A stretch of 64,000 bases of DNA from Candidatus Saccharimonadia bacterium (GTDB lineage Bacteria; Patescibacteriota; Saccharimonadia; UBA4664): NCBI GenBank assembly GCA_041743505.1, contig JBGTMQ010000020.1:17099-81098 (forward strand). Reading direction: 5' to 3'. The notes under the pieces are model-generated. The model was not told the origin of the DNA, searched no databases, and saw only the letters and a list, made by a program, of their open reading frames with translations. Shown here in pieces: positions 40,584 through 64,000 of the stretch (the first letter of the stretch is position 1; each line of letters begins with the position of its first letter). Position numbers and translations under genes: made by a program.

Positions 40584-41888
40584 ATGAAAAACCTCTCCGG
40601 GCGCACCGCCCGCCTCATCACGCTCATGCGATCCAGCGACTTCATCCGCCACAACAGCATCCTCTTCGTCGGGTCATTCGCCGTCAGCGTCCTGAACTAC
40701 CTGTACTACCCGATACTCGGCCGCCTCATGAGCCCCAGCGATTTCGGTGAGGTCCAAGTCCTCGTCTCGCTGTTTATGCAGGCCACCATCTTCCTCACCG
40801 TCGTCACCAATGTGGCCGTCAATGTCGTCACCAACGAGAGCAACGAAACCCTCCGCAACCGCATCGTCTATGAACTCGAGCATTTCGCCACCCTCATCAC
40901 AGTCGTCACCCTGGGTGTAGCCCTCTTATTTATCGGCCAACTCCAAGAATTTCTCCGGTTCGAACACCCTGCGCCCTTCTTCGCTCTGGCCCTCGTCCTC
41001 GTCATCAGCGCGCCCCTGGCTCTGCGCCAAGCCTACCTGCGCGGCCGCTCGGCCTTTGGCCTTATGTCTATCGCTAGCATTACCTCTTCTCTTGCCAAAA
41101 TCATCTTCTCCGTCATCTTCGTTCTCCTGGGCTGGCGGGCGGTCGGCGCCATCGGCGGCATTATCGCCGCGCAAATCATCGCCCTTATATACACCGCCTC
41201 TCAAGCCCGCAAACTCGGACTGGTTGGCAAAATCAACTGGCGGCTCTGGCGCAAGCCGGACTTAGGCCTACTCCGGCCGCAGCTGCCATACTCACTACTC
41301 GTCTTAATCGTCTCCCTCATAACCACGGTGCTTTTCAGCTTCGACGTCATCATCGTCAAGCACTTCTTCCCGGCTGAGATCGCCGGTTACTACGCCGGTA
41401 TCGCCACCATCGCCCGCATCATTTACTTCTTAACCGGCTCCATCGCCGTCGTCCTACTAACCGCCGCCAAGATAGAAGCCGGCCGCGCCACCAACCACCG
41501 CCTGCTTACGCGCTCCATGTTGCTACAAACGGCCATCGGCGGCGCTGCTCTGGTGTTCTTCTCGCTCTTCCCACAGTTTTCCACTCAGCTCCTCATCGGC
41601 TCCAAATACCTGCCCTATGCTCATCTTTTGCCCATGCTTAGCCTGGCCCTCTTCATCCTCGCCACTCTCAACCTGCTCCTTCACTACGACCTGGCCCTCC
41701 GCCGCTACAGCGCCGCTGTTGTCTCAATACTAGGTGGCGTCGTCATGATCGCAGCCGTGCAGATGAATCACGCCTCCCTCGAAGCCGTTGTCCAAAGCCT
41801 GCTCATCGGCTCCCTGGCCGCCCTCGCCATCCGCGGCCTCGACAGCCTCCGCCGCCGCGCACTGCAACAATTACAGTACCCCTCATGA
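40584..41888 (+). CDS. oligosaccharide/polysaccharide flippase (Wzx-like, MOP superfamily)
   Basis: 434 aa with at least 12 TM helices and a conserved N-terminal region of polysaccharide biosynthesis proteins. Confidence 0.7.
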   Translation: MKNLSGRTARLITLMRSSDFIRHNSILFVGSFAVSVLNYLYYPILGRLMSPSDFGEVQVLVSLFMQATIFLTVVTNVAVNVVTNESNETLRNRIVYELEHFATLITVVTLGVALLFIGQLQEFLRFEHPAPFFALALVLVISAPLALRQAYLRGRSAFGLMSIASITSSLAKIIFSVIFVLLGWRAVGAIGGIIAAQIIALIYTASQARKLGLVGKINWRLWRKPDLGLLRPQLPYSLLVLIVSLITTVLFSFDVIIVKHFFPAEIAGYYAGIATIARIIYFLTGSIAVVLLTAAKIEAGRATNHRLLTRSMLLQTAIGGAALVFFSLFPQFSTQLLIGSKYLPYAHLLPMLSLALFILATLNLLLHYDLALRRYSAAVVSILGGVVMIAAVQMNHASLEAVVQSLLIGSLAALAIRGLDSLRRRALQQLQYPS

Positions 41889-42112: not shown

Positions 42113-43144
42113 ATGGCGCAATCTCAGAAACTCATCAGCATTATTGTGCCTTGTCACAACGAGCAAGCCAATATCGAGCCGCTTTACCAGGCATTATCAC
42201 AAACCATCAATGACCTACCGGAATCTTTCGAGTTTATTTTTGTCGATGACGGCAGTAAGGACGACACCCTAATCGGCCTCCGCGAGCTGGCTGAGCGCGA
42301 CGAACGGGTCCGGGTTATCGAAATGGTGCGCAACTTCGGCAAGGAAATCGCCATTACCGCCGGCCTGCATCAATCCAGCGGCGATGCGGCTATTTGTCTG
42401 GACGCCGACCTCCAACACCCCCCGGAACTCATCCCGGACCTCATAGCCAAGTGGCACGGCGGCGCCGAAGTCGTCGTCGGTATCCGCTCACCCGGCTCCC
42501 GCCACGCCTCATTTATTAAGCTGGCCGGCAGCGCCGTCTTTTATAGGCTCATGAACGCCATCTCCGACGTCGAAATCGTCGCCCGCGCCACCGATTATCG
42601 CCTTATCGACCGGGTCGTCATCAACGAGTTCAACCGCTTCACCGAGCACAGCCGCATCACCCGCGGGCTCATCGACTGGTTGGGCTTCAAGCGCGCCTAC
42701 GTCGAATTCAAAACCCCCAGCCGCAACGCCGGTAACGCCGGTTACGGCATATTCAAGCTCGTCAATCTGGCCCTCAACTCCTTTGTTTCCATGAGCCTTG
42801 TCCCACTCCGCTTCGCCGGCTGGCTTGGCGCCGTCATCATGCTCACCTCGGGCGCTACCGGCCTATTCATTTTCATCGAGAAATACCTTCTCAAGGACCC
42901 CTGGGGCCTTGGCTTCTCCGGCCCGGCCATCCTGGCCGTCATCATCCTGTTCCTCGTCGGCCTCATGCTGGTCTGCCTTGGGCTCATCTCGCTCTATATT
43001 GGTGTCATCCACACCGAAGTCATGAACCGCCCGCTCTACGTCACCCGCAGCCGCAATCGCCGGGGCGGCCGCATCCTCGTTGATGCCCAGGAGGTGGTCG
43101 AGCATCAAAAACAAGAACAAGAGCACGAGGCGCTCCGCCGGTGA
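42113..43144 (+). CDS. family 2 glycosyltransferase (GtrB / polyprenol-phosphate glycosyltransferase-like, with C-terminal TM helices)
   Basis: ISIIVPCHNE...FVDDGSKDDT...DADLQHPPE matches GT2 DXD architecture. Two C-terminal TM helices are typical of GtrB/DPM1-like enzymes. Confidence 0.8.
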   Translation: MAQSQKLISIIVPCHNEQANIEPLYQALSQTINDLPESFEFIFVDDGSKDDTLIGLRELAERDERVRVIEMVRNFGKEIAITAGLHQSSGDAAICLDADLQHPPELIPDLIAKWHGGAEVVVGIRSPGSRHASFIKLAGSAVFYRLMNAISDVEIVARATDYRLIDRVVINEFNRFTEHSRITRGLIDWLGFKRAYVEFKTPSRNAGNAGYGIFKLVNLALNSFVSMSLVPLRFAGWLGAVIMLTSGATGLFIFIEKYLLKDPWGLGFSGPAILAVIILFLVGLMLVCLGLISLYIGVIHTEVMNRPLYVTRSRNRRGGRILVDAQEVVEHQKQEQEHEALRR

Positions 43145-44286
43145 ACATCCTCTGGCTAACCTGGAAGGACCGCCGGAATCCTCTTGCTGGCGGGGCCGAA
43201 GTGGTCAATGAAGAGCTGGCCAAGCGCCTGGCCTCAGGCGGCCACAAAGTCACCTTCCTGGTCGCAGGATTTCCCGGCAGCCAGCCCCAAGAAGACCGCG
43301 ACGGCTTCCATATCATTCGCATCTCCAGCCGCTATATGGTCTATTTAGCTGCCTTCAGCTACTTCCGTCGCCACCAAACCGAACTCAACCCTGACCTAGT
43401 CATCGACGAGTGCAACACCATGCCGTTCTTTTCGGCTTGGTACACGCACAAACCAACCATTATGTTCTTCCACCAACTTTGCCGCATTACCTGGTTTTAT
43501 CAATTTCCCCAACCCCTCTCCACCATCGGCTGGCTGGCCGAACCCGTTTACCTTCGCCTGCTCAAACGCAGCCCGGTTATCACCATCTCAAACTCCGCCA
43601 AACAAGACCTTATCCGCCACGGCTTCAAGGCCGCCGACATCCACATCATCTCCGAAGGCTCCCACCTCACACCCGTCAAAGACCCTGCCGGTGTCGTCAA
43701 ATTTGCCACCCCCACCATCATCAGCCTCGGCTCCATTCGTCCCGTCAAACGCACCCTCCACCAGCTCCAAGCCTTCGAACACGCCAAAGCTACCATGCCT
43801 GACCTCCGCTTCATCATTGGCGGCGACTCCTCGGGCAGCTACGGCAGCCAATTCCTCGAAGCCATCAAGCGTAGCCCCTACGCCGCCGATATTGACTACC
43901 GCGGCCATGTCAGCGACGCCGAAAAACTCGAACTCATGCAGCGTGCCCACGCCATCGTCGTCACCAGCGTCAAAGAAGGCTGGGGACTCATCGTCACCGA
44001 AGCCAACTCGCAGGGCACCCCGGCCGTCGTCTACGACGTCGACGGCCTCCGCGATAGCGTCCGCGACGGCCAAACCGGCCTAATAACGCCAGCCAATACA
44101 CCCGAAGCGCTAGGAGACAAAATCATTGAACTCCTCCGCGACCCCGCCCGCTACCAAACCCTCCGCACGCAAGCCTGGCAATGGAGCAAAACCATCACCT
44201 TCGATCAAAGCTACGCCGACTTCACCAAAGTCCTCAATCTGACTACTACCCCTAACGAATCCCGACAAGAAGTTCCTACTCCGTGA
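43141..44286 (+). CDS. family 4 glycosyltransferase (GT-B fold)
   Basis: GT4 EX7E region EGWGLIVTEANSQGTPAVVYDVDGL. GTGA overlap with the preceding GT2. Confidence 0.8.
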   Translation: MNILWLTWKDRRNPLAGGAEVVNEELAKRLASGGHKVTFLVAGFPGSQPQEDRDGFHIIRISSRYMVYLAAFSYFRRHQTELNPDLVIDECNTMPFFSAWYTHKPTIMFFHQLCRITWFYQFPQPLSTIGWLAEPVYLRLLKRSPVITISNSAKQDLIRHGFKAADIHIISEGSHLTPVKDPAGVVKFATPTIISLGSIRPVKRTLHQLQAFEHAKATMPDLRFIIGGDSSGSYGSQFLEAIKRSPYAADIDYRGHVSDAEKLELMQRAHAIVVTSVKEGWGLIVTEANSQGTPAVVYDVDGLRDSVRDGQTGLITPANTPEALGDKIIELLRDPARYQTLRTQAWQWSKTITFDQSYADFTKVLNLTTTPNESRQEVPTP

Positions 44287-48519: not shown

Positions 48520-48543
48520 ATAAGCATTATAGAAGACATTTAC

Positions 48544-48831: not shown

Positions 48832-48911
48832 AGCAATAGTCTACGATAATTTTGCATAGAAAAGCAAAGTCCCGGAGAGTAAGGTGCGCTCTCCGGGACT
48901 ATATGTTGTTC

Positions 48912-51737: not shown

Positions 51738-52571
51738 ATGAACCAACCGCTCATATCCGTTATCGTCCCCACTCGCAACAGCGAGCCGGTCCTGCGTCCT
51801 TGCCTCCAATCCATCAAAGACCAAACCTACCCCAACATTGAGCTCATCGTCGTTGACCGCGATTCCACCGACGCCACCAAGCAAATCGCCGCCGAATTTA
51901 CGACTCATATATATAACCACGGCCCCGAACGCTCAGCTCAACGCAACCTCGGCGCCCAAAAGGCCACCGGCCAGTACCTCGCCATTATCGATTCCGATAT
52001 GGAATTAGACCCCGAAGTCATCGAACAATGCTTCGCCCAATTCGTCGCCGACCCCACCTTGGCCGGCGTTGTCATCCCCGAAGAATCCTTCGGCCAAGGC
52101 TTCTGGGCCCAATGCAAACGCCTCGAGCGCTCATTCTACGTCGGCGTCACCTGGATCGAGGCGGCCCGCTGTTTCCCGACCAAAACCTACCACCAACTTG
52201 GCGGTTACGACGTCACCATGGTTAGTGGCGAAGACTGGGATCTCGCCCGCCGCGCCGAACAACTCGGTCCCATCGGCCACACCCAGGCCCTCATCCGCCA
52301 CAACGAAGGCCGCATCAACCTCTGGAAAACTCTCAAAAAGAAGTACTACTACGCCCAACAAGCCAAAGCCTATCTCGAAAAAAGCCAAACCGGCTCCAAA
52401 CTCACCGCCCAAGTCGGCCCGCTCCAGCGCTACAAACTGTTTTTCTCAAAACCCGGCCACCTCTTCCGCAATCCAATCCTTGGCATCGGCATGCTCTTTA
52501 TGAAAACCTGCGAATACGCCGCCGGAGCATTCGGCTACTATGGCAGCAGTCTTCGTCGTAAGCCTGTGTAA
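51738..52571 (+). CDS. family 2 glycosyltransferase
   Basis: ISVIVPTRNSE...VVDRDSTD...IDSDMEL (DXD) matches the GT2 fold. High-GC. Confidence 0.75.
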   Translation: MNQPLISVIVPTRNSEPVLRPCLQSIKDQTYPNIELIVVDRDSTDATKQIAAEFTTHIYNHGPERSAQRNLGAQKATGQYLAIIDSDMELDPEVIEQCFAQFVADPTLAGVVIPEESFGQGFWAQCKRLERSFYVGVTWIEAARCFPTKTYHQLGGYDVTMVSGEDWDLARRAEQLGPIGHTQALIRHNEGRINLWKTLKKKYYYAQQAKAYLEKSQTGSKLTAQVGPLQRYKLFFSKPGHLFRNPILGIGMLFMKTCEYAAGAFGYYGSSLRRKPV

Positions 52572-52691
52572 ATCGCCCATCCCAAACCACAATTCGGCAC
52601 TATATTTTGTGAATCTCTCTAAATTAGTTGCGACACGCAGCTAGATTTAGGTTATATTAGAGCTATATACAGCCATAACCGAAATAAATGC

Positions 52692-53639
52692 ATGACCAAG
52701 CTCGATCAATCAAATCAGTCGCCTGTGAGTATAGTTATCCCGACCTTTAACCGGCCGGATAAGCTGGAAAACCTTCTGCGCAGTATTGCTGGCTCTACAG
52801 TAAAAGATTGTGAAGTTATTATTGTTGATGATTGTTCAGCTGTTCCCACCGAAGACTCGCTTCAAAGTTATTTGCCCAGCCTTAACCTGCGGGTCAAAGT
52901 CATTCGGAACAAAACAAACCAGCAGCTCACCAAAAGCCGTAATATCGGGATGAAGGCAGCTAGCGGTAAGTACATTTTCCTTGTCGATGATGATAATATC
53001 CTCGATCCCAAGTGCATTGAGGTTTTGCGGGACAAATTAGCCAGCGATGAGCATATTGGAGTTGTTGGGCCCGTCACCTACTTCGCCAATAACCCTAAAA
53101 CAATCTGGTGGGCTGGCACTAGTCGAAATATGACAACCAGCCGCACCCATTTCATTGGAACCAGCCTACCTCTGCCCGATGAACCGTCCTGGCCGTCCGA
53201 TGACTTTCCCAATGCCTGGATGATTACCCGGGAGATTGTTGATCGCGGGTGTTTTTTGGATGAAAGGTATAAAATTCACTATGACGAAGCCGATTATTGC
53301 GCAAGAATAAAGAAGCTTGGCTACAAGCTCTTTGTCGTACGTGACGCCCGGTCAAATCACGATTTTGAACCTGATTCCCCGAGCGCTTTAGCTGAGCGAT
53401 GGCTAGACCACCGCCGTGTCTATTACTCGGCGCGTAATCGCGTAGTTTTTCATAAGGAGTACTCCACCTCAAGGGAATTTTTGCAGTTTGCGCTATTCTG
53501 GAATTGGCTATTCACAGCCTATTATATGCAATATATCTTGCGCATACCCACCAAAAACTGGAGCACTAAATTAAAGAGCTGTTTCTCTTATCTCAAGGGT
53601 TCTATCGATGGGTTTTATGGCTTTAGAGAAGGTATCTAA
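52692..53639 (+). CDS. family 2 glycosyltransferase (low-GC)
   Basis: VSIVIPTFNRPD...IIVDDCS...LVDDDN matches the GT2 fold. Confidence 0.75.
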   Translation: MTKLDQSNQSPVSIVIPTFNRPDKLENLLRSIAGSTVKDCEVIIVDDCSAVPTEDSLQSYLPSLNLRVKVIRNKTNQQLTKSRNIGMKAASGKYIFLVDDDNILDPKCIEVLRDKLASDEHIGVVGPVTYFANNPKTIWWAGTSRNMTTSRTHFIGTSLPLPDEPSWPSDDFPNAWMITREIVDRGCFLDERYKIHYDEADYCARIKKLGYKLFVVRDARSNHDFEPDSPSALAERWLDHRRVYYSARNRVVFHKEYSTSREFLQFALFWNWLFTAYYMQYILRIPTKNWSTKLKSCFSYLKGSIDGFYGFREGI

Positions 53640-56600
53640 AAAAACCAAGACCGTCTTCTGGGCAGCGCTTGGCGGGGTAGGCATCATTGTGCTTGCCCTC
53701 TTGTCAATTAAAGGCAAGATGTTCATTATCCCGGACAATATGCCCATTACCTTAGAAAATTATCAGCACATTTTCTTGAGTAATAGCGCCTGGAGTCATT
53801 TCCTCAACATACCCACCTACGATCAGTCAATCTTTATATTTCGCCAGTACATCTTCTGGCTCTCCAAACTCTTCTCATTGGAATTAGGGCAAGGGCTCCT
53901 GTTAGGGAAAATTCTGTTCGTGCTTAGTGCCGGTTGGGGCATGTATCTGCTCGGTAAAGATATTAACCGCCGGTTCTTCGATGGCCGAATCGAAACGCTA
54001 TTCTTAATCATAGGCGCTATCTTGTACGCCTTGGCTCCGGCGTTTTTAATAGCCGATAGTTTCTGGGTTGGCATTCAGTTTGGCTACTATATTATTCCCC
54101 TCATACTTTTTAGCGTTACCAAAATAGTGCTAGACGGGAACTGGGTATACTTACCGCTGTACCTGTGGCTCCTGTCTCTCAATAACGCCATTCACTATAC
54201 CTATGGTGGTTACCCGGCATTAATCGGTATTTTTTGTCTGGCGCTTATCATTGGTGAAGGCCGGAGCGAAAAAATCAAACTAGTTCGCCTCGCCATGCGA
54301 CTGACCGTCATCGCGATCGGTTATCTCCTCATAATTTCACCCAACCTGGTCGGCTTGCTGTCTCCTGATGTCGGCATGGCCACCCAGATGACCAAGCAGT
54401 CGATTGACGCGCCGTGGTCGTCGGCTTCATTTGTGAACGTGGCCGTTGGCATGAGTTCTAACAACTTAATACTTGATTATTATTCACGCGATTCGCTCAC
54501 AAAAATCGCCTACGGATTCCTGGCCTTCGTTCCGATGATCGCTCTAATCTCGCTCCTATTTCTCCCAAAATACCGCGAAGCAGCCCAGAAATATTACCGG
54601 TTTCTACTCGCCATCATTATTGGCTATATGCTTGTAATTCTGTGTTTCTCAGATGGGAGCATTTTTAAGTTCATTCATTACTCACTAGCTTTCGATGCTC
54701 CAATGGGCCGCATCCTCAGAACCACGCGGGTGACCGAAAGCTTCGTCCTTATAGCCCTAGCTCTAATCATCCCATTTTCGCTGCACGAGATAAAACGCTA
54801 TTCAAAGATCCCCACCCGTATCATGGCCGTAATAGGCACCCTCGTATTATTGGCCTATATAACCCCCGTTTTAAAAGGGGATATAAACGGGCCAATAATT
54901 TCCGTGCCTAAGCAATATCTAGAGCAGTCCAATTTTCTCAAAACTGTCGCCGACCCTTCGGTCGACAAAACCGTGGCTGCGCCGGAGTTCACCGCCTCAT
55001 ATGGGAAAGATGCGGTTATGAAGCCGCATTGGAGCCCAAACGTGGGTATGATCGCCGAGTTCCTTGGTTACTCACAACCAATACAGGCCATCCTCACGCT
55101 TGATAACTTAAGACATTATTATTACTTCACCGTATCTGACTTTTATAAAAAATCGAATAACCTGATTTTTTCCGAGGAATTCTATGCCCTTGCTCATTTT
55201 TTAAGCCTGAATAACGTCCGGTATCTGATGTTTCACGCCGATACCCAATCAAATCTGAAAGATATCGAATTCGCCGACAAGATTCTCGATTCAAAGTACT
55301 GGCAAAGTGTCTATACCAATAAAGATATAACTGTGTTTGAAAACCAAGTCAGGCAACCGGCGGTTAGCGCTTATTCCCAAGATGAAACCTCGCTTGTGTC
55401 CGGCGGCTATCGGAGTGCTGCCAGGTTTATAAACCAATTGCCCGAAACACTGAACCAAAACCGGCTATTCGCCTTCTTAGACCAAGGCGCTAACCCTGCC
55501 CTAATAGGCACGACCGGGCGACTAATTACCGATAAAACACCCGGGGACCTCAACGGCGACATTATGGCAGCCAGCGTCATTGCCGAGAAATCACTACCAG
55601 GGGCCCAAATAATCTTTCCGGCCGAGAAAACCAAGCAGTACGCCCCAGAATCAGTCTGGTCCACCGGGACATACGCCAATAACCACGAGCAAGAGTGGCA
55701 CAGATATGTAAACGAAATGGACGATTACGCCTGGGATTTTGATTGGGGCCACGGCATTCTATTTATTAACCGGGCCAAAAATAAGTTAGAAATTCCCATT
55801 GAAAACGCCAGTCAGGGGCAATCCAAAATCCATGTCCGGTACCTCAAAAACGACAAGGGCGGAGACATGTATCTCAATATTAGCGGTCAGAGGTTCCATA
55901 TTAACTCAATATCCCCCTATGACGGCTTCGGCTGGGCCAGCTTTGACGTTGGCCAAACTAAAAATAACAACCACATCATCTTAGAAAATAGCAGCGGGTT
56001 TAACGCTGTTTCAACCATCCTCATCATCGACGATAAGGCAACCAATACTATTGCCTCTACTACCAAGCCTTTAATTACGAATGCCAAGATCATCGATAAC
56101 TCACTGGAAACCAGCCCCAATATCTCCCGCGCCTCAGGTTTTGAGAGTCCATCAGACATGGCCCAGTGGCGTGTGTCGAAGAAGGAGGGCTCCTTTACAT
56201 CCAAACTAGATACCAGCCAGCCCAAAGAGGGCAAGTCGTCTCTCGTAGTCCAAACTAGCGGCCAGTCGCGGGCCTGGAGCTGGATAGAGGGCCCATCCAT
56301 AAATGTTGAACCAGGCGAGAAGTATGTCTTCAGAACCAATATCAAGCTTTCCAATGCCATGAACTCACACATCGCGCTAATCGGTAAAGGGAAAAACGGT
56401 GAGAAACAGCTAACTCAACTGCCCGGAGCTATCAGCGGCACCAGTGAATGGCAGAGTTTCCGCCACACCATCAAAATCCCGTCCGGCGTTACTTCTGTTA
56501 GAGTCGCCCTCAATGCTGGCTGGGCAAAAGACAAGTCTCGACCTGCAAAAACCTGGTTTGATGCCATCAAATTAAACCCACTAACGCCCGCCTTACCTTT

Positions 56601-57039
56601 AGGTGAAGTAGAATCGATGTCCAAAAGCGTTACGAATTTAAAACAGCTAAATAACACTCGCTGGGAGGGCGACATCAGTCTACCCAACAACAAGCCTGTA
56701 TTCCTGGCCTTTAACCAAAGCTTCGATCCGGGATGGAAGCTTTTTCTAGCACCCGGCAATCAGTCTCAAAACAACGCAAGTTCTATTGGCTTCACAAAAC
56801 CCGGCCTGGAAATTGATACCAAGAAACATTTTAAGGCCAACGGTATTAATAATGGCTGGGAGATTGACCCAAGCTCGTTACCGCCTAATTTACAGAGCAC
56901 ACCCATGCATTTTGTAATCGAATATTGGCCTCAGCGCTCATACCTACTGGCTCAAATAGTCGAAGGATCAGCTCTCCTCCTCTCAGTCGCCGGTGCTATT
57001 GCCTTTGTCATATTCAGGAGGCGGAACAAACATGCATAG
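53608..57039 (+). CDS. giant polytopic membrane protein with large extracytoplasmic C-terminal domain and C-terminal TM anchor (GT-C / AftD-like architecture; paralog 1)
   Basis: About 12-13 N-terminal TM helices, then roughly 700 aa soluble, then a final TM (ALLLSVAGAIAFVIF) and a basic tail. It shares the C-terminal module (F.PGW.L ... NGW.ID ... PQR) with 59426..63205. Confidence 0.55.
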   Translation: MGFMALEKVSKKTKTVFWAALGGVGIIVLALLSIKGKMFIIPDNMPITLENYQHIFLSNSAWSHFLNIPTYDQSIFIFRQYIFWLSKLFSLELGQGLLLGKILFVLSAGWGMYLLGKDINRRFFDGRIETLFLIIGAILYALAPAFLIADSFWVGIQFGYYIIPLILFSVTKIVLDGNWVYLPLYLWLLSLNNAIHYTYGGYPALIGIFCLALIIGEGRSEKIKLVRLAMRLTVIAIGYLLIISPNLVGLLSPDVGMATQMTKQSIDAPWSSASFVNVAVGMSSNNLILDYYSRDSLTKIAYGFLAFVPMIALISLLFLPKYREAAQKYYRFLLAIIIGYMLVILCFSDGSIFKFIHYSLAFDAPMGRILRTTRVTESFVLIALALIIPFSLHEIKRYSKIPTRIMAVIGTLVLLAYITPVLKGDINGPIISVPKQYLEQSNFLKTVADPSVDKTVAAPEFTASYGKDAVMKPHWSPNVGMIAEFLGYSQPIQAILTLDNLRHYYYFTVSDFYKKSNNLIFSEEFYALAHFLSLNNVRYLMFHADTQSNLKDIEFADKILDSKYWQSVYTNKDITVFENQVRQPAVSAYSQDETSLVSGGYRSAARFINQLPETLNQNRLFAFLDQGANPALIGTTGRLITDKTPGDLNGDIMAASVIAEKSLPGAQIIFPAEKTKQYAPESVWSTGTYANNHEQEWHRYVNEMDDYAWDFDWGHGILFINRAKNKLEIPIENASQGQSKIHVRYLKNDKGGDMYLNISGQRFHINSISPYDGFGWASFDVGQTKNNNHIILENSSGFNAVSTILIIDDKATNTIASTTKPLITNAKIIDNSLETSPNISRASGFESPSDMAQWRVSKKEGSFTSKLDTSQPKEGKSSLVVQTSGQSRAWSWIEGPSINVEPGEKYVFRTNIKLSNAMNSHIALIGKGKNGEKQLTQLPGAISGTSEWQSFRHTIKIPSGVTSVRVALNAGWAKDKSRPAKTWFDAIKLNPLTPALPLGEVESMSKSVTNLKQLNNTRWEGDISLPNNKPVFLAFNQSFDPGWKLFLAPGNQSQNNASSIGFTKPGLEIDTKKHFKANGINNGWEIDPSSLPPNLQSTPMHFVIEYWPQRSYLLAQIVEGSALLLSVAGAIAFVIFRRRNKHA

Positions 57040-57451
57040 GCTTGCCAGAAACGAAAAACCTTCGCAACGGCTAGTTGAGGTTGTATTACGAAACGGCAAA
57101 GTTATAGCAGTTACATTACTTGTCATAAGTATTATCGCTGTTACAAAACCCTCACTTGGACTAATTATATTATTCACGCTGGTCGTACTCGTCAACCTAT
57201 TTCAGGTTGACGCCCTCAAGTTATTTGGTCTAGGGCTAATACTAATGGCAATCTGGCTAGCCCTTTTTACAAGTGACTTCATCCACGCCAAAAGCCTAAT
57301 GCCATCAGGATTAGCGGGCAATTTCCAAGGCTGGCCCTACTACTTGTTTTTTCTCGGCCTCACCCGGCTCCTATTCACCGAGACCCGCCCCAAGAGATCA
57401 ACAGCCGGCCAATTAAGCAGAAACCAGCGTATTTATGGCAGAAGTAAATAG
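57032..57451 (+). CDS. small membrane protein
   Basis: RBS AGGAGG at 57016 then ATG 57032. 4 TM helices. Confidence 0.4.
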   Translation: MHRLARNEKPSQRLVEVVLRNGKVIAVTLLVISIIAVTKPSLGLIILFTLVVLVNLFQVDALKLFGLGLILMAIWLALFTSDFIHAKSLMPSGLAGNFQGWPYYLFFLGLTRLLFTETRPKRSTAGQLSRNQRIYGRSK

Positions 57452-57748
57452 CCAAAAAACAAATAATGTACTCTGGGCGCAGTCTATCAGGTTAACTATT
57501 TTGTAAATTCGCACAATTACGCCGCTTGTCCCAGCTCCTAAACTAATCAAGCTACAATGTGATCCGTTGCTACCAGATCAACGACCGGAGTTATGCCGAA
57601 TTTACTTAAAATCTCAACTTAACTATGCCTAAACGCGCATTCCGTCAGGTGATTCCTGCACGATGAACAGCGCGCTTCTTTCTGTTGTCAAAACTAACCA
57701 CTCAGGCTCAGGCCTCTACTGTATAAACGTCGATTTAAGGAACTAAAC

Positions 57749-58810
57749 ATGAACAGGTTACCAGAGAAGTCTGCCGCTACTAACCCGCACAATGCTCTGA
57801 TAAGTGTCATAATCGTCAACTGGAACGGCAAAAAATGGCTTAAGCGCTGTCTAGATACGCTTCTAGCTCAAACTCACAGTAACACCGAGATAATACTGGT
57901 CGATAATGGCTCCGCCGACGACAGTGTGGAGTATATTAAAACGAATTACCCATCCATAAAATTGGTACTATCGAAAACAAATCTGGGGTTTGCCGGGGGT
58001 AATAACCTAGGCTATAAACATGCGCACGGGGAGTATATCTTGCTTCTCAATAACGACACCTATGTTGAGCCAGAATTTTTAGAGAAGTTTGTGGCAGCAT
58101 ACGCAGAGATTCCTCGACTCGGCAGTGTTCAGTGCAAGCTTGTGCTCATGTACGACCAAAAGCATCTCGATGTGGCCGGTTCATATTGGACCAGTAGTTC
58201 ATTTCTTTACCACTATGGTTACGGCAAAGACGCTACCGACAAAAGGTACAATCAAAAAATGCCTTTTTTCTCAAATAAAGGCGCCGCAATGCTATTGCGG
58301 CGCGATATTATAGAAGAGTTAGGTCTCTTCGATGACGATTTTTGGTGCTACTACGAAGAGACCGACTTGTGCCATAGACTCTGGGTGGCTGGCTACGAAT
58401 GCTGGTATTATCCAAATGCAACCGCCTACCATGCCATGGGCGGTACCTCGCTGCTGTTTCCCAATGATTTTATTCAGTTCCATAACTTCAAAAATAAACT
58501 ACTGAGTTTCTTAAAAAACTTTCAGCTCCGAACGCTAATTACAGTAATACCGCTTTACCTACTGGTCAATTTTCTTCTCAGTATATTATGGCTTATCAAA
58601 GGCAAACCGAAACATGCGTTAGCACTTTATAAGTCTATCTGGTGGAATGCCAAGCACTTTAAAGCTACACTCAAGAAACGACAGCATATCCAAAGCATGC
58701 GTCTATCAAGTGATAAACAAATTTTCGCGCAGGTTAAACGCAACCCGTCGTTTAGCTACTATACAAAGCTGTTTAATGGAACGCTGGCGGAATATGAAGA
58801 CCGAATATAG
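57749..58810 (+). CDS. family 2 glycosyltransferase (rhamnosyl/galactosyl-transferase-like)
   Basis: ISVIIVNWNGKKWL...ILVDNGSADDS...LLNNDT matches GT2. Confidence 0.8.
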   Translation: MNRLPEKSAATNPHNALISVIIVNWNGKKWLKRCLDTLLAQTHSNTEIILVDNGSADDSVEYIKTNYPSIKLVLSKTNLGFAGGNNLGYKHAHGEYILLLNNDTYVEPEFLEKFVAAYAEIPRLGSVQCKLVLMYDQKHLDVAGSYWTSSSFLYHYGYGKDATDKRYNQKMPFFSNKGAAMLLRRDIIEELGLFDDDFWCYYEETDLCHRLWVAGYECWYYPNATAYHAMGGTSLLFPNDFIQFHNFKNKLLSFLKNFQLRTLITVIPLYLLVNFLLSILWLIKGKPKHALALYKSIWWNAKHFKATLKKRQHIQSMRLSSDKQIFAQVKRNPSFSYYTKLFNGTLAEYEDRI

Positions 58811-59450
58811 TGATTACTTCAAACAGCACTATAAAAGCACACTTACAGAAAAGGACATCGTAATTTATAGGCAATGGTTTGATCGTCAGTGGCGGATAAT
58901 CAACCAGAAAATAGCTATCACCCCTTCATCTGAAATTCTAGAGATTGGATCGGGTTTTGGAGGCTTTTATGGCTTCATAAGAGACTCTGGCAATCAAAGC
59001 TACACCGGTCTGGAGCTTGACCCCGAGGCAGCTGCTTTCGCCAACCGCTACTATGACACACAGGTATTTAAGGTCAGTTCCATCGAAGACTATAACCCGC
59101 CAACCACATATGACATTATTTTTGCATTCGAAGTATTAGAGCACATCGACAACCCGGGTGAAACTATCGCCAAGATACACAAGATGCTTAAGCCAGGCGG
59201 CGTTTTTTGTGCCACGTCTCCTTATCCGTTCAAGAAGAATATTGATGCAGACGATACACATGTATCAGTTTTACACCCCGCTAATTGGCGGCGGCTTTTC
59301 CAGCGGACCGGTTTTACGGACATCTCGTCCCATCCCATGTCGTTTTTACCGTTAGTGTGGCGGATTAATAAAAAGGCCAATATCAAGCTACCGTTTTACA
59401 TTCCATTTCAGGGCTTTATATCCACATGTCTCTTTATCGTCCAAAAATAA
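58794..59450 (+). CDS. class I SAM-dependent methyltransferase
   Basis: Motif I ILEIGSGFGGF and motif II/III region DIIFAFEVLEHIDNP. Start MKTEYS at 58794 overlaps the upstream gene's 3' end. Confidence 0.7.
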   Translation: MKTEYSDYFKQHYKSTLTEKDIVIYRQWFDRQWRIINQKIAITPSSEILEIGSGFGGFYGFIRDSGNQSYTGLELDPEAAAFANRYYDTQVFKVSSIEDYNPPTTYDIIFAFEVLEHIDNPGETIAKIHKMLKPGGVFCATSPYPFKKNIDADDTHVSVLHPANWRRLFQRTGFTDISSHPMSFLPLVWRINKKANIKLPFYIPFQGFISTCLFIVQK

Positions 59451-62400
59451 TAACCCTACTCAATATAGCGTTGGCTCTGTTTTTATTAGCTCTGCCTTAT
59501 TATCTTTTTCAAGGCAAGCTTTATATAGGTGGAGACGACACTCGTCTGTATTATTTATTTCCAGCAGAGTATCTTGCCAATCTCGTAAGTACTTCATGGT
59601 TCACATTTTCTTCGACCGGCTTATATAATCCGAATTTCTTTCTAATACCGCTATTAACTGTAGTTTCGGTTTTTAAATTTATAATCCGAAACCCAGTTAT
59701 TCTGACGTACTTCTTTTTTTCGGCACCATTAATACTTGGGGCTTATTTTTTTCAAAAGCTGGTCGGCTCTTTTACTCGAAATAGCAAAGAACTCATCATT
59801 TTCTTAGCTTCGCTCCAGTATATTCTTTCTCCAATCATGCTAGTTGGGCAGCTCGACAAATTTTTGTATTCAGTCTGGTTGATTCCACTTCTACCAGCCC
59901 TACTATACTTTCTCGTCAAATATTGTAAGACCGGCAGCAGTTCTGCTCTAATCGGCGGCGTGGGTTGGAGTGTGGTGATGGCATTAGCGATGTATTCAAT
60001 ACCTTGGCTATTGGGCGCGTTAATCCCCATAGGGTTGAGCGCCCTTATTATATGTACGTATTTTAGACTTTGGAGCAAAGTGGTCTTGATAAGAGGCACT
60101 GTTTTCTTAAGCTTGATCTTTTTGTCCCAGAGTTTTTGGCTAGTCCCTTTCATTAATTCTGTGCTTGTTCCAAGTAGTAATAGTTATGGAGGACAGGCCC
60201 TTTCTGGGGCAGTAGCCGATACTTTCGCTTCGACTGTACAGGCTACCTCTACCGGCAACGTGTTCTACCCGTTAATAGGCTACTTCCATCGAACGATCGC
60301 CTTTGACTTCCAATGGGAACTCGCTTCCGTATATTTGCGCTTCTACGACTACATCGCCGTCCTAGGCTTGGCCTTTCCTGCCATTTTTGTTTATGCATGG
60401 ATAAAGTTCAAAAAATCCAATAACGAAATCAATTGGTACGTTTACCTCGGACTATGGCTGGCATTTTTGGCTACGCTCTTTCTCTTCACCGTCAACATTG
60501 GCTTCTTTAAATCTGTCTTCATTGCCATGGGGCAGATACCTGGTTTTGCGATGTTTAGAAATAGTTACGACAAATTCGCTCTGGCTTATATATTCGTATT
60601 TTCCATTTTATTTTACGTATCGCTCCACACCTACGTGAAAGCCGAGACTAACAAAAAGAAGCTTGCAGCGGTCCTCGCTGGCTTCACTATACTGATACTT
60701 GTAAATTTTGTGCCGGCCAAACAATTAATAAATAGGCCGCTCTGGACTACCCAGAAGTCCTTTACGACCATTGATTATCCTCGTGAATATGTAGATTTTA
60801 TGGAAGCCATTAAAGAAGATGTGCCAATAGATAGTAATATCCTGAGCGTACCTTTTGGGTCGTCATCATACACAATCGTCAAAGATGAAAGCTCAAATAA
60901 CGTCTTCGCGGGACGGTCGCCAGTTAAGATACTTTCCGGCCGAAACGATTTCAGCGGCGACTTGTCTTTTGATGCCACTACAGCCCAGTTGATAAATAAG
61001 TATATTCAATCCAGAGATTATCGAAAATTGAAAAATGTGCTTAATAATCACAACGTTGGCTATATTGTAGAAACTAACAATATTCCCGAAGAGGTAAAAA
61101 AGTCCTACCTATTTAACACCCAAACATTTAATAAGCAGGATGCCCAGTTTAAACATGCCCTTTATGGCCCTCTGGTGTCGACTAGTAGCACCGGTGCTTA
61201 CAAGTTATATAGTATTAACGGACGTTCAGGGATAGCCACAGCCACCACCGGGGTACACAAGTACGTTGTTAACAGCACTGATTATGCTGTAAATGATAGG
61301 TACTTATTTGAAAAAGATGGGTTACTTGGCTTTGCAAACAGCGAATTGCCAACAGCTAGCACGGAGCTAATAAGTAACGCCTTTGCTTACCAAATAAACC
61401 CAAGCAGTACTATCCATGCCCAAAAAGGCGACTATTTAATGCACCTGGATAGCCCAGATATCGCGAGTTTTGTTAGGCTGCGCACACCAGCCGGATTAGG
61501 CGTCAAGAGAGATTTTCATTACTACATTGAGGGCAAGAAAGACTACAAGGCCAATAGCGTTCCTGTCGGCGTGTTGCCTGCTAGCTCGGGCTTACTAGTC
61601 GATGACATTCCAGTATCTCCGGACAAAGTTGATGGATACAGCGCGAGTTCAACAGACGATGTTAGAACGCTGAATCTAGCGGTGGCAAATGTATTTGGTT
61701 CAACCCTTAATTTTCTAAACAGCTCACAGAAAAACGATTGTAATGCTCACTCATCAAAGGGACAGAAGACAGCCTTTAACTACAACGCCGCAAACGCTTC
61801 AATGGTGTTAACAGCTACCGATAAGCATCTCGCCTGCTCATGGCATGAATATGAAGCTAGCCCCGACGCAGTTTATCAATTGCGGTTTAACTATCAAACG
61901 AACGCTTCAAACCTTAAGGTCGTAATCACTGATGAGAATGGGAAGCAACTGGAGGCAAAGGCCCTTCCAAAAACGGCCAACCAGTTTGCTAATTATTCCG
62001 GCTTTATTAATGTGTCGTCGAGACCGTTCAGAGTTTATTTTTATTCAGGCTCAAGTGACCAGATGGCCCGTACGGAATACAAAGATCTCCAGTTGAGCGC
62101 CTATGCCCCTGGGGTAAAAATTAATATTTCGGAGCCTATTAATAAGCTACCCGATAAAATCGCCGTTACCGTCCCGGGCCAAGACACTGGGGCAGTTAAT
62201 ATGACTATTGGTAATAGTGCGACAGATAATAAAGTTTCACCTTTTGCGCTATGGCACCAATCAAATTGTAATGCCGTGAATGATTCTGATTCGGCCGTTT
62301 CATACATCGATAAGGATGGCGGTATTCAGCTTAGGTCTGAAAAAAAGCATGACGCCTGTATCTATAACGACTTCGAAATTAACCCAAACGATAATTATCA

Positions 62401-63205
62401 GCTGGATCTACGATATGACAAACCTCGCGACCAAAGCACATATGTATATATAGGCTTTGGTCGTGGCCACAAGCCGGTTACCTTTCCTCTAACCAATTCA
62501 GGGCAGCTTAAAGCCATGATAGAGCCACCGAAAAGCGCGGCCTTAATGCGGCTGTATTTGTATTCCGGACATTCACTGAGCCAGAACGAGATCACTTACA
62601 AAAGCCTTAACATTAGCTCAATGGCAAAATATGGCTACCGCAACAGTCTAGTTAGTGTCATTGGTAACAAAGAATATGATGTTGACACTAGTAAACTGAG
62701 CCCAACAAAGTACTTGATGACGGCTCATAATATCGATAGCGCTTTTCTGCTTAATTTAAGTGAAGCTTTTCATCCAGGATGGGAGCTAAGTATTAAGGGC
62801 AGAAAAGATAACTCAGCTATGCAGCACGCTGAAATAAATCAGTACTCTAATGGCTGGTACATTGATATTAATAAACTTTGTCGGGGGCAAAAGTTATGCA
62901 CCCAAAATGCCAACGGCTCCTATGACATGGAAATGGTCGCAGAGTTTAAGCCCCAGCGCTGGTTCCATGTTGGCTCTATCATCAGCGGCGCTACGCTCCT
63001 CGGCTGCATCGGCTACCTAACCTACAGTTGGCGGCGACGGAAGCAAAAACCTGGCGAGGAAACTGGTGAGCCACCACAGGATAACGAGCCACCGACGGAC
63101 CGAGAGCCGCCAAAAGCGCCACCAACTCCACCCATGCCGCAAAAACAGGTCCGTCGACGTAGTATGGACATGACTAGGCGCACAGGAGGCGTAAAACGGC
63201 TATGA
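59426..63205 (+). CDS. giant polytopic membrane protein with extracytoplasmic C-terminal domain, C-terminal TM and Pro-rich tail (paralog 2)
   Basis: About 12 N-terminal TM helices. Shares the C-terminal module with 53608..57039. Final TM LLGCIGYLTYSW, then RRRKQ and a Pro-rich tail. Confidence 0.55.
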   Translation: MSLYRPKIITLLNIALALFLLALPYYLFQGKLYIGGDDTRLYYLFPAEYLANLVSTSWFTFSSTGLYNPNFFLIPLLTVVSVFKFIIRNPVILTYFFFSAPLILGAYFFQKLVGSFTRNSKELIIFLASLQYILSPIMLVGQLDKFLYSVWLIPLLPALLYFLVKYCKTGSSSALIGGVGWSVVMALAMYSIPWLLGALIPIGLSALIICTYFRLWSKVVLIRGTVFLSLIFLSQSFWLVPFINSVLVPSSNSYGGQALSGAVADTFASTVQATSTGNVFYPLIGYFHRTIAFDFQWELASVYLRFYDYIAVLGLAFPAIFVYAWIKFKKSNNEINWYVYLGLWLAFLATLFLFTVNIGFFKSVFIAMGQIPGFAMFRNSYDKFALAYIFVFSILFYVSLHTYVKAETNKKKLAAVLAGFTILILVNFVPAKQLINRPLWTTQKSFTTIDYPREYVDFMEAIKEDVPIDSNILSVPFGSSSYTIVKDESSNNVFAGRSPVKILSGRNDFSGDLSFDATTAQLINKYIQSRDYRKLKNVLNNHNVGYIVETNNIPEEVKKSYLFNTQTFNKQDAQFKHALYGPLVSTSSTGAYKLYSINGRSGIATATTGVHKYVVNSTDYAVNDRYLFEKDGLLGFANSELPTASTELISNAFAYQINPSSTIHAQKGDYLMHLDSPDIASFVRLRTPAGLGVKRDFHYYIEGKKDYKANSVPVGVLPASSGLLVDDIPVSPDKVDGYSASSTDDVRTLNLAVANVFGSTLNFLNSSQKNDCNAHSSKGQKTAFNYNAANASMVLTATDKHLACSWHEYEASPDAVYQLRFNYQTNASNLKVVITDENGKQLEAKALPKTANQFANYSGFINVSSRPFRVYFYSGSSDQMARTEYKDLQLSAYAPGVKINISEPINKLPDKIAVTVPGQDTGAVNMTIGNSATDNKVSPFALWHQSNCNAVNDSDSAVSYIDKDGGIQLRSEKKHDACIYNDFEINPNDNYQLDLRYDKPRDQSTYVYIGFGRGHKPVTFPLTNSGQLKAMIEPPKSAALMRLYLYSGHSLSQNEITYKSLNISSMAKYGYRNSLVSVIGNKEYDVDTSKLSPTKYLMTAHNIDSAFLLNLSEAFHPGWELSIKGRKDNSAMQHAEINQYSNGWYIDINKLCRGQKLCTQNANGSYDMEMVAEFKPQRWFHVGSIISGATLLGCIGYLTYSWRRRKQKPGEETGEPPQDNEPPTDREPPKAPPTPPMPQKQVRRRSMDMTRRTGGVKRL

Positions 63206-64000
63206 TACGCTGGCGGCCATGGTTCATATACGGCGCACTCGCAGTAGTCATAATGGGACCATTGTTACTCCCGGGCTACATACTCACAATCGACATGCCC
63301 TGGACGCCTTGGCTGCCGGAACAGACGCCAGGGGACAGCAGCTGGCTGTTTTTCACGCTACTCGGCTGGCTAGGGATAGTGATTCCGAGCATGATACTGC
63401 AAAAGTTGCTATTACTCGCCATCTTCATAGTAGCCGGGGTCGGTGCCTACAAACTGGCCCAAGACAGGGTAGGGCAGTGGCCGGCTTATTTCGCCGGCGT
63501 AGTCTACGTCGTGAACCCGTTTGTTTACACCCGCCTCGTGGCCGGGCAGTACCTAATCTTGTTGGGCTATGCTCTATTGCCGTGGTTTGCCTTGGCGCTG
63601 GTCAAGCTGCTAGAGCGGCCGGGCTGGAAACGGGCGCTGTATCTGGCCGCCTGGGGCTTTGGCGTGGCGACAGTGGCCATCCATGACATCGGTTTAATAG
63701 CCTTACTCGCGCTCGTAATCGTACTGGCGGCCAGCTGGCGGCATTGGCCTGTCTTGCTTGGTTCTGCTAAATGGTTGGCGCTGGCCTTTGTCTCGTGGCT
63801 GGCCTTGTGCGCCATATGGCTAGTCCCATTAGTGATGGGCCGCTCATCCACAGCGCAACAAATCGGTGAGTTTAGCTGGAATCAGTTTGGTGGTTATATC
63901 ACCGCTGGCGAGCAAGCCTGGGTGCCGCTAAATACCCTCGCATTGCAGGGTTTTTGGATCGACACTGCCGGAAAATATGCTTTGCCGAGTGCTACCGGCG
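63202..64000 (+). CDS. N-terminal part of a third polytopic membrane protein (high-GC; 3'-truncated by window edge)
   Basis: The frame is open from ATG 63202 to the window end with no stop, and hydrophobic TM segments run throughout. It is absent from the ORF track because it has no stop codon. The track ORF 63219..63686 is in the wrong frame. Confidence 0.5.
   Translation, partial: MIRWRPWFIYGALAVVIMGPLLLPGYILTIDMPWTPWLPEQTPGDSSWLFFTLLGWLGIVIPSMILQKLLLLAIFIVAGVGAYKLAQDRVGQWPAYFAGVVYVVNPFVYTRLVAGQYLILLGYALLPWFALALVKLLERPGWKRALYLAAWGFGVATVAIHDIGLIALLALVIVLAASWRHWPVLLGSAKWLALAFVSWLALCAIWLVPLVMGRSSTAQQIGEFSWNQFGGYITAGEQAWVPLNTLALQGFWIDTAGKYALPSATG

Follow-up and report, generated by a model that had tools for sequence, protein, structure and literature searches.

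The locus raises two linked questions: why a block of low GC content lies within the glycan locus of a Candidatus Saccharimonadia genome, and what the two giant membrane proteins encoded in it may do. We analyzed the 64,000-nucleotide stretch of DNA that contains the block (hereafter the window; features lie on the plus strand unless stated otherwise), for which an earlier note had described a drop from a background of about 60% GC at ~52.6-63.2 kb. A quantitative GC profile bears out the drop, with a value of 0.447 for positions 52,572-63,000 compared with 0.549 for 1-44,286, 0.562 for 48,912-52,571, and 0.567 for 63,202-64,000. The background is therefore about 55-57% rather than 60%, and high GC resumes, as the note had it, at the gene starting at 63,202. 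The block is the lowest-GC 10.4-kb stretch of the window, and its six genes have GC3 values of 0.45-0.55, compared with a mean of 0.65 (S.D. 0.08) in the 32 other genes (Mann-Whitney p 4.5e-5, 6 versus 32 genes). Its upstream edge falls within a 120-nucleotide gap (52,572-52,691) and its downstream edge at ~63,035, within the 3' end of the gene for giant B, so that two modules in ~10.5 kb (52572..63034) fill a variable slot; neither mobility genes nor flanking repeats were found at the edges. The window as a whole is a mosaic, with further low-GC patches at 9-14, 29-31.5, 38-40, and 44.3-48.9 kb.

Judged by homology and synteny, the conserved frame around the block is a GtrA-like flippase, a tRNA-Glu, Wzx, a PgfS/ArnC-like GT2, a GT4, a GT2, the slot, and an MmpA-like GT-C protein, and in relatives the gene order Wzx, GT2, GT4, GT2, variable slot, giant, MmpA-like gene is conserved. 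The first two features lie on the minus strand. The GtrA-like small membrane protein (37750..38205; Pfam PF04138 GtrA_DPMS_TM, 49.3 bits, cut-off 26.1), a candidate polyprenyl-phosphate sugar flippase, belongs to the portion of the wider locus that is conserved, and the relative L047 has a GtrA gene at the equivalent place. The tRNA-Glu (40092..40166; ARAGORN and Rfam), where the conserved glycan locus begins, serves as a landmark of synteny and has 87% identity to the same position in L047. The Wzx-like polysaccharide flippase gene (40584..41888; Pfam Polysacc_synt, 63.5 bits) has host-like GC (0.59) and is syntenic in L047, L049, and L050. The following GT2 (42113..43144) resembles PgfS/ArnC-like polyprenyl-phosphate sugar synthases over its full length, at scores below the equivalog thresholds (NCBIfam PgfS, 221.7 bits, cut-off 500; ArnC-type PRK10714, 142 bits, cut-off 529); it is 60-68% identical to the orthologues of relatives and is a candidate maker of the lipid-linked donor. 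The GT4 glycosyltransferase (43141..44286; Pfam Glycos_transf_1 and Glyco_transf_4) has 62-67% identity in relatives, and the GT2 that forms the upstream flank of the slot (51738..52571; Pfam PF00535; GC 0.566) is 67-68% identical to its counterparts in L047 and L049 and 59% to that in L051.

The block holds everything that the earlier note listed for it: two GT2 enzymes, a SAM methyltransferase, a small membrane protein, and the two large proteins (1143 and 1259 aa). Module A consists of a 315-aa GT2 (52692..53639; Pfam PF00535, 112.6 bits; GC 0.46), which is 48.5% identical to the GT2 preceding an A-type giant in L051, giant A itself (53608..57039, 1143 aa), and a 139-aa membrane protein with hydrophobic segments (57032..57451). 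The last of these gave no match in Pfam or NCBIfam and has no detectable similarity to the product of the 149-aa gene that follows the A-type giant in L051. A 297-nucleotide non-coding gap (57452..57748), the sole sizeable intergenic stretch within the block, separates the modules, and on reading its sequence we found neither a repeat nor a flank remnant. Module B consists of a 353-aa GT2 (57749..58810; Pfam PF00535; GC 0.43), a 218-aa class I SAM-dependent methyltransferase (58794..59450; Pfam Methyltransf_23, 67.7 bits), and giant B (59426..63205, 1259 aa). Among the loci compared, genes related to the methyltransferase (51-57% identity) are present only in low-GC Patescibacteria, and the loci of these organisms that carry relatives of the module B GT2 and methyltransferase have a GC of 0.31-0.38. 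The last 57 codons of giant B have a host-like GC of 0.58 and encode a tail that is missing from its homologues.

Across the syntenic loci L047-L051, flank proteins are 47-69% identical, whereas the giants are 24-45% identical and show a different pattern of relatedness. At the DNA level the flanks are 66-73% identical to those of relatives and the low-GC block matches in short patches only. In most relatives a single AftD-like giant of host-like GC closes the slot. An A-type module occupies the same slot by itself in L051 and a B-type module by itself in L047, whereas the window has two low-GC modules stacked in tandem. In bootstrapped neighbor-joining trees of small samples, the flank GT2 recovers a lineage clade of the window, L047, and L049 (99% bootstrap), whereas lineage monophyly has 0% bootstrap for the cassette GT2: the window and L047 copies fall within one low-GC Patescibacteria clade and the L049 copy in another, each at 100%. 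The tree of the giant B N-terminal domain likewise gives 0% bootstrap for monophyly of the four Saccharimonadia-type copies. With cassette genes nested among low-GC Patescibacteria and flanks following the lineage, these trees support horizontal replacement. The gene at 63,202, the third of the earlier note's series, is the conserved downstream flank. The locus shows the features expected of a variable glycan cassette that is exchanged horizontally, with flanks that are conserved, GC and GC3 that deviate, and gene trees that disagree with those of the flanks, and these features fit the foreign origin that the note had proposed. We consider it probable that the block occupies the variable slot of an otherwise conserved surface-glycan locus and that its two stacked modules were imported horizontally from lower-GC Patescibacteria. 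The window and L047 share a clade of B-type alleles (99%) in which both have kept a low GC, so that the import may be old, with low GC maintained, rather than recent.

The same observation fits a different explanation, in which diversifying or balancing selection has preserved the low-GC alleles as ancient alternative types at this slot. Their composition would then come from a bias in mutation or selection that acts locally (for example through weak expression, or because variable loci are AT-rich) rather than from low-GC donors. The two B-type alleles show little amelioration, and an intermediate case exists in the giant of L050 (GC 0.50). In L051, whose genome GC is 0.37, the cassette (0.28-0.30) is AT-richer than its already low-GC flanks (0.41-0.49), so that a bias of the slot independent of donor GC could also explain the composition. 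Against this, the cassette GT2 genes of three related genomes fall into the two low-GC Patescibacteria clades described above, and the module B GT2 is nearer to the neighbors of B-family genes in low-GC Patescibacteria (58-63% identity) than to the copy of the sister lineage L047 (56-57%), a pattern that is reversed for the flank GT2 (68% to the sister lineage versus 45-52% to low-GC taxa). The slot does not itself enforce low GC, because in a survey that used the MmpA-like gene as anchor and covered 48 loci, the window included, most slot giants are host-like in composition, and a GC deficit of at least 0.08 occurs in only 7 loci, one of them the window. We therefore hold the ancient-allele explanation to be somewhat unlikely and return to horizontal import: on the sequence evidence, both modules were most likely acquired by exchange with lower-GC Patescibacteria. 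We infer a route in which the cassette would have entered by recombination in the conserved flanks.

For the giants, an AftD-like GT-C architecture had been suggested, and the AlphaFold2 model of giant B (pLDDT 85.1, pTM 0.73) agrees with it. The best solved-structure match in Foldseek is AftD (PDB 6W98, chain 6w98_A; PF11847), end to end with an E value of 2.2e-14, followed by STT3. The model has an N-terminal bundle of ~11 TM helices up to residue ~435 and a soluble periplasmic alpha/beta domain (453-608), the combination expected of a GT-C enzyme, then beta-sandwich domains (~655-1075) that match SGBP-B, CBM22, and Cry domains in model comparison, a conserved C-terminal module, a single TM helix (1177-1199), and a 57-aa Pro-rich tail. 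Giant B has more than 120 homologues, among them P0008 (45% identity); the CBM region differs between alleles and is absent from many members of the family (about 770 aa). A GGDD motif at residues 35-38 is invariant; its D37/D38 pair does not change in 39 B-family sequences and reaches at least 90% conservation in a set of 124. At its N terminus giant A has about 10-11 TM segments, followed by a periplasmic part that carries a CBM_4_9 domain at residues 842-973 (Pfam, 38 bits, cut-off 25.9), the C-terminal module, and a TM anchor at 1110-1141; CBM families also occur in relatives. The model of giant A is weak (pLDDT 62), its GT-C fold matches being STT3 and DPY19 (E 1e-4), and the GT-C bundle and soluble domain are assigned to it by homology to the B family. 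Position D43 in its first loop is D or E in nearly all of 22 aligned A-family sequences.

The gene at 63202..64000, cut by the window end, had been taken as a third, partial paralog of the class above 1100 aa, with host-like GC. The composition stands (0.57-0.58), but the full gene, read from the identical contig L001, encodes only 535 aa and is homologous to the giants solely over their first ~600 residues, the N-terminal GT-C module, so that the description as three tandem paralogs over 1100 aa is wrong. Its protein matches the NCBIfam model NF053599 (MmpA/NCgl2761/Rv0226c) over profile positions 6-475 of 543 at 170.2 bits (E 6.6e-50), below the curated cut-off of 210, and by this similarity is a homologue of the MmpA family, not an equivalog. 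Profile alignment with hhalign relates the MmpA-like family to the A family (probability 99.8, E 3.7e-28) and to the B family (probability 97.6, E 4.6e-12). Residue D31, which aligns with D43 of giant A, does not vary within the MmpA-like family. The best homologues of the protein are those named Candidatus Saccharimonadia, and in this analysis the host's taxonomic placement is read from such source names. Its start codon overlaps the stop codon of giant B (ATGA), and a large ORF (at least 690 aa) lies directly upstream of the MmpA-like gene in 42 of the 48 loci. Giant followed by MmpA-like gene is thus a conserved pair of the lineage, and the giant at this position is not in itself a novelty.

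In AftD the domain plan includes D41 and a C-terminal membrane domain of TM12-16 that binds acyl carrier protein (bioRxiv 10.1101/2019.12.22.885152). Giant B shares with AftD the N-terminal multi-TM GT-C and soluble GT-C domains, the beta-sandwich/CBM domains, and the return to the membrane, at a sequence identity of ~10%. In contrast to AftD, both giants lack a TM12-16 domain and end in a single TM helix. An acidic residue is found in the first loop of all three families (B-family GGDD, A-family D/E, and MmpA-like D31), a putative counterpart of AftD D41, which sits in the first loop of that enzyme. Sequence profiles found no PDB relative and gave no alignment to 6W98. HMM searches of giant A, giant B, and the 63,202 gene against the AftD (DUF3367; Pfam PF11847, GT-C_AftD) and YfhO (Pfam PF09586) families gave no match even at E <= 10, and no GT-C model of Pfam or NCBIfam was reached by either giant; weak PF11847 matches do occur among relatives in the three families (5 of 39, 4 of 30, and 4 of 36). 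On the strength of the modeled fold of B and the homology of A to the B family, giants A and B are likely AftD-like GT-C fold glycosyltransferases. To our knowledge, arabinan synthesis is not known in these organisms.

The absence of a curated GT-C match leaves room for another assignment, in which the giants and the MmpA-like protein would not be glycosyltransferases but scaffolds, lipid or glycolipid export factors, or glycan polymerases or ligases. Corynebacterial MmpA (NCgl2761) affects the acetylation and transport of trehalose lipids and has been proposed to act in lipid export or to anchor a complex in the membrane (PMC8698533). We regard this assignment as unlikely, because the whole-length fold match is to AftD and further to STT3, both catalytic GT-C enzymes, because the first-loop acidic residue is invariant or nearly so in all three families, and because the CBM domains and the co-located GtrA and polyprenyl-phosphate sugar synthase-like GT2 fit catalysis.

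A and B had also been called paralogs. They are homologous over their whole length (giant A against the B family, hhalign probability 99.2, E 7.5e-20, 995 columns), and the C-terminal motifs that the note had reported, (F/H)PGW(K/E)L, NGW(E/Y)ID, and PQR, are present in both and conserved across the family, but close paralogy does not hold. An origin as tandem duplicates of one giant gene in this genome, which later diverged, would agree with their collinear homology, common architecture, and shared C-terminal module. It is very improbable and is contradicted by their identity of only 16-21% (~16% is too low for recent duplicates), by closer relatives elsewhere (full-length homologues P0247-P0250 at 33-35% for A, P0008 for B), by other genomes in which one type fills the slot without the other and is paired with a GT2 of its own, and by the lack of DNA repeats linking the modules. 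By these comparisons A and B belong to separate families, and orthologues of each occupy the slot alone in other genomes. That assembly or binning created the GC step by joining the DNA of two organisms is scarcely credible, for although the contig is metagenome-assembled and Patescibacteria of differing GC coexist in such samples, an independent Logan assembly (SRR28170470) is identical over 51,499-64,000 (0 mismatches in 12,502 nucleotides) and extends downstream, both edges lie within a syntenic frame seen in five relatives, and the giant B stop overlaps the start of a gene of host GC.

Composition, homology, fold, synteny, and tree incongruence are observed here; donor, acceptor, catalysis, and function we infer. 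The locus would likely serve to glycosylate a surface glycan outside the cytoplasm, with sugars supplied on polyprenyl phosphate. GT2 and GT4 enzymes in the cytoplasm would make or decorate a lipid-linked glycan, the PgfS/ArnC-like GT2 would place a sugar on polyprenyl phosphate, and GtrA or Wzx would flip the product to the outer face of the membrane. There each giant would transfer the sugar, by means of its acidic first-loop residue (D37/D38 in B, D43 in A), to an acceptor polymer bound by its CBM-like beta-sandwich domains. With two distinct giants, two different linkages or branches could then form, and the slot would set the type of surface glycan. The scheme follows the three-component logic of GtrA, GtrB, and Gtr-type GT-C proteins, as in the Citrobacter GT136 system (PMC11127046). 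Like such systems, this locus combines a GtrA-type flippase scoring above its cut-off with GT-C enzymes that have CBM-like domains, and the PgfS/ArnC-like GT2 is its candidate synthase; unlike them, its three parts span about 26 kb with no compact operon, its GT-C enzymes have two to three times the size, and their function here is putative.

Low-GC O-antigen and capsule clusters of Gram-negative bacteria likewise have conserved flanks, a low-GC center, divergent glycosyltransferases, and trees discordant with the flanks. Here the hallmark variable gene is instead a giant GT-C rather than Wzy or Wzx, the organisms are Patescibacteria, in which no LPS is expected, and a single genome carries two alternative modules in tandem. 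The swappable-cassette pattern, familiar from surface-glycan loci, is thus seen in a little-studied lineage. A parallel also exists in M. tuberculosis, where Rv0226c lies near aftD and MmpA resembles the first 668 residues of AftD (PMC8698533); in the present loci the MmpA-like gene directly adjoins the AftD-like giant. We know of no mycolate or trehalose lipid synthesis in the host lineage.

One reading that joins these points, and that we put forward as doubtful, is of an ancestral two-enzyme unit of Patescibacteria, an AftD-like giant working with a protein of the MmpA/Rv0226c family that would be a true GT-C glycosyltransferase with an invariant first-loop Asp, and with a serotype-like switch at the giant's slot. 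If it is true, the switch would govern how phages, or the actinobacterial hosts of these epibionts, recognize the cells, the tandem modules of this genome would give it a composite glycan, and a testable catalytic hypothesis would follow for mycobacterial Rv0226c, which is essential but mechanistically unexplained.

The window is a compositional mosaic (0.42–0.64 GC per kilobase), with its longest and deepest trough at 52.6–63.0 kb. Measured directly, the block 52,572–63,000 has a GC content of 0.447, compared with backbone values of 0.549 (1–44,286), 0.562 (48,912–52,571) and 0.567 (63,202–64,000), and every other 10.4-kb stretch in the window is at least 0.527. The six genes of the block have third-position GC (GC3) of 0.45–0.55 against a mean of 0.65 (sd 0.08) for the 32 remaining genes (Mann-Whitney p 4.5e-5), the GC shift being present at all three codon positions. 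These data bear out the fall in GC at about 52.6–63.2 kb claimed by an earlier note made by eye; its higher-GC flanks are also real, but at 55–57% and not at the 60% it gave, and further low-GC patches exist in the window. Patches of 0.47–0.52 lie outside the glycan locus at 9,000–14,000, 29,000–31,600 and 38,000–40,000, so the backbone itself is compositionally mosaic. The amino-acid composition of membrane proteins does not force the low GC of the block, given that the GT2 and methyltransferase, which are soluble, have GC just as low and GC3 is shifted; giants of the type in the related contig L049, which are at host GC, also speak against this explanation.

The gene content reported in that note was correct for all six genes. 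The first set comprises a GT2 (52,692–53,639), the 1143-aa giant membrane protein A (53,608–57,039) and a 139-aa membrane protein (57,032–57,451), and is separated by a 297-nt gap from a second set of a GT2 (57,749–58,810), a SAM methyltransferase (58,794–59,450) and the 1259-aa giant B (59,426–63,205). In the NCBI record, B is annotated as 1075 aa with its start at residue 185 (window 59,426–59,978). Because homologues align from residues 1–24 and include the invariant GGDD loop, this model is missing the initial TM helices as well as the putative catalytic loop. Elsewhere in the glycan locus we observed a diverged segmental duplication (44,083–49,577; GC 0.45) dense in membrane ORFs of 80–125 aa. 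It repeats the 3′ end of a GT4 gene (44,083–44,287 and 48,021–48,225, 97%) and small membrane ORFs (44,734–44,969 and 48,535–48,770, 92%), and a 204-aa GDSL ORF (47,364–47,978, minus strand) duplicates the lipase portion at the C terminus of an 855-aa ORF (48,912–51,479, minus strand); the related contig L047 has a single 105-aa ORF at this position. Also notable for a probable reduced-genome Patescibacterium are a complete three-domain NHEJ ligase, LigD (15,110–17,602), a C25-family peptidase with propeptide (31,665–34,481) and a lectin/DUF11/choice-of-anchor-U surface protein (6,500–8,464).

Comparison with relatives places the block in a conserved setting. One frame is common to five related contigs and runs tRNA-Glu, Wzx, a PgfS/ArnC-like GT2, GT4, GT2, variable genes, one giant and an MmpA-like gene, followed by two small genes and then PK, PGK and TIM. 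The variable genes of this slot, between the conserved GT2 and the MmpA-like gene, come from a set consisting of GT2, GT4, pyruvyl transferase, CDP-alcohol phosphatidyltransferase, UDP-glucose dehydrogenase and NYN genes. Protein identity in the flanks is 47–69% in all pairs, whereas that of the giants is 24–45% with a different pattern of relatedness; at the DNA level the flanks are 66–73% identical and the block matches in patches only. GC contents of giant and flanks are 0.48 and 0.60 in L047, 0.44 and 0.65 in L048, 0.50 and 0.58–0.63 in L050, and 0.30 and 0.41–0.49 in L051; in L049 the giant, at 0.575, equals its flanks. With the MmpA-like gene as anchor, a scan of metagenomes added 80 loci. 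In 42 of 48 loci with enough upstream DNA, a large ORF (≥ 690 aa) ends within 2.5 kb upstream of this gene. Most of these ORFs belong to the L049 type and have host-like GC, and a giant GC deficit of at least 0.08 is found in only 7 loci, the window included. Occupying the slot does not in itself force a gene to low GC.

The affinities of the individual genes point outside the lineage for the block and inside it for the flanks. In a species-representative genome collection, B-family genes are almost all in contigs of 0.24–0.48 GC, the exception being one Acidimicrobiales locus at 0.72. Among 45 record titles, 18 are of Patescibacteria lineages (Levy-, Gottesman-, Ames-, Morani-, Berkel- and Gracilibacteria), 21 read 'uncultured Gammaproteobacteria' and 6 carry other names. 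The 21 loci so titled (within L006–L044, contigs of 0.28–0.42 GC) have the same GT2/methyltransferase/giant neighborhoods as Levybacteria- or Patescibacteria-titled contigs, and the name therefore looks like a placeholder. The cassette GT2 at 57,749 is 58–63% identical to neighbors of low-GC B-family genes versus 56–57% to the L047 copy, and the methyltransferase is 51–57% identical to genes in low-GC B-family loci and, among the loci compared, was found there only. The flank GT2 shows the reverse pattern (67–68% to the lineage versus 45–52% to low-GC taxa). In bootstrapped NJ trees the flank GT2 forms a lineage clade with 99% support, whereas the cassette GT2 gives 0% support for lineage monophyly, the window and L047 copies sharing one low-GC clade (100%) and that of L049 belonging to a different one (100%). 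The tree of the B N-terminal domain joins window and L047 (99%) and L048, L050 and a Moranbacteria locus (96%), with 0% support for all four lineage copies together. Taken together, these trees support arrival of the cassette by horizontal replacement; they do not date it. The clade shared by window and L047 suggests that the import was not recent.

The cassette edges showed neither an integrase or transposase gene nor a flanking repeat, and no repeats or flank remnants of ≥ 40 nt were found there or between the modules; promoter and terminator scans were uninformative. We infer that recombination through the conserved flanks was the route of entry. The last 57 codons of B (63,035–63,205) encode a mostly Pro-rich tail of 0.58 GC present in no homologue; B homologues stop a few basic residues past the TM anchor. 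As this tail is host-like in GC and absent from homologues, the downstream junction is suggested to lie inside the 3′ end of B, and the 57-aa tail is possibly read-through into host DNA at a recombination junction.

The reading of the giants as AftD-like GT-C enzymes was supported by fold. DUF3367/AftD, YfhO and GT-C families were sought in A, B and the third gene, as the earlier note had proposed, and the giants had no AftD/DUF3367, YfhO or other curated GT-C match in Pfam or NCBIfam even at E ≤ 10; a CBM_4_9 domain in A scored above threshold. A confident AlphaFold2 model of B residues 1–1200 (pLDDT 85.1, pTM 0.73) has as its best solved-structure match Mycobacterium abscessus AftD (6w98_A, E 2.2e-14, whole-length alignment), followed by the oligosaccharyltransferase STT3 and various CBM-containing proteins. 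AftD has an N-terminal GT-C super-domain and several β-sandwich modules, which are also in B, but has TM12–16 where B has one C-terminal TM helix (bioRxiv 10.1101/2019.12.22.885152). More than 120 B homologues occur in two forms, long (~1230 aa) and short (~770 aa), the latter keeping residues 1–600 and the last ~130 without the β-rich middle. The GGDD at residues 35–38 of B is conserved, and Gly-36, Asp-37 and Asp-38 are invariant in 39 sequences. The weak A model (pLDDT 62) matches CBM4 and CBM22 domains, and also STT3 and DPY19, these two at ~1e-4. A aligns collinearly to the profile of the B family (hhalign 99.2%, E 7.5e-20, 995 columns, 16% identity), carries IPDN at the GGDD position, where nearly all of 22 aligned A-family sequences have an acidic residue, and shares with B C-terminal motifs that are real and kept across the family. 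PDB sequence and profile searches with A, B, the B-family and MmpA-like profiles and two weak-PF11847 relatives returned low-complexity noise only, so AftD residues could not be mapped. The apparent orphan status of A was an artefact of a word-indexed search (3 distant matches); exhaustive HMMER searching gave 461 matches, four of them full-length at 33–35%. No relevant publication on GT-C or AftD-like enzymes of Saccharibacteria or Patescibacteria turned up in a literature search.

The third gene, from 63,202, is cut by the window end. An independently assembled Logan contig from run SRR28170470 has 0 mismatches to the window across 51,499–64,000 and extends past its end, and an assembly chimera was rejected. 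On this contig the gene encodes 535 aa and scores 170 bits against NCBIfam NF053599 (MmpA family; cut-off 210). Profile comparison aligns it with the B family (97.6% probability, E 4.6e-12, B 74–607 to 48–535) and the A family (99.8%, E 3.7e-28), that is with the first ~600 residues of the giants, so its homology is limited to their GT-C module. The idea of three tandem giant paralogs is not sustained. The gene has host GC, and its nearest homologues are titled Candidatus Saccharimonadia, from which the probable host was deduced. A comparable resemblance, of Rv0226c to the first 668 residues of AftD, was noted in published MmpA work (PMC8698533).

Relatives carry the two gene sets separately. 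Flanked by the conserved GT2 (59%) on one side and an MmpA-like gene on the other, the L051 slot contains a GT2 with 48.5% identity to that at 52,692–53,639, together with an A-type giant (33%) and a gene of 149 aa; the L047 slot contains a GT2 (57% identical to that at 57,749–58,810) and a B-type giant (45%). In the window the two sets stand one after the other, and recent tandem duplication was rejected as the origin of A and B. No other related locus was seen to combine two giants with an MmpA-like gene; counts were made with three family HMMs, A-type giants being beyond the reach of the B-family HMM, which is too insensitive. In L058, two tandem 760-aa GT-C homologues (5,348–11,617) lie directly 5′ of an MmpA-like gene, the only other triple arrangement among related loci.

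The same locus encodes a GtrA-like protein (37,750–38,205) and a GT2 similar to polyprenyl-phosphate sugar synthases (42,113–43,144). With the GT-C enzymes, these are candidate counterparts of the components of the three-component extracytoplasmic glycosylation systems reviewed in PMC11127046. Each giant would most likely move a sugar from a donor linked to polyprenyl phosphate onto a surface polymer, which its CBM-like domains may hold, while the cassette GT2s and methyltransferase would supply type-specific steps.

The earlier observation was largely right. The block is a replaceable glycan cassette, familiar in kind and located in an under-studied lineage. Low-GC exchangeable glycosyltransferase cassettes are well known in general, and the surprise for a specialist is therefore modest; its unusual features are that two modules are stacked and that the pairing of an AftD-like giant and an MmpA-like protein is conserved. 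Most members of the Saccharimonadia and of other Patescibacteria have not been cultured and spend their lives attached to host cells, the surface is their contact point with host and phages, and to our knowledge almost nothing is known of their surface glycans. The locus provides a concrete example of a conserved gene frame in which one slot is replaceable, and a large unannotated AftD-like GT-C family without a Pfam or NCBIfam model, and the giant/MmpA-like pairing could inform the mechanism of mycobacterial Rv0226c.
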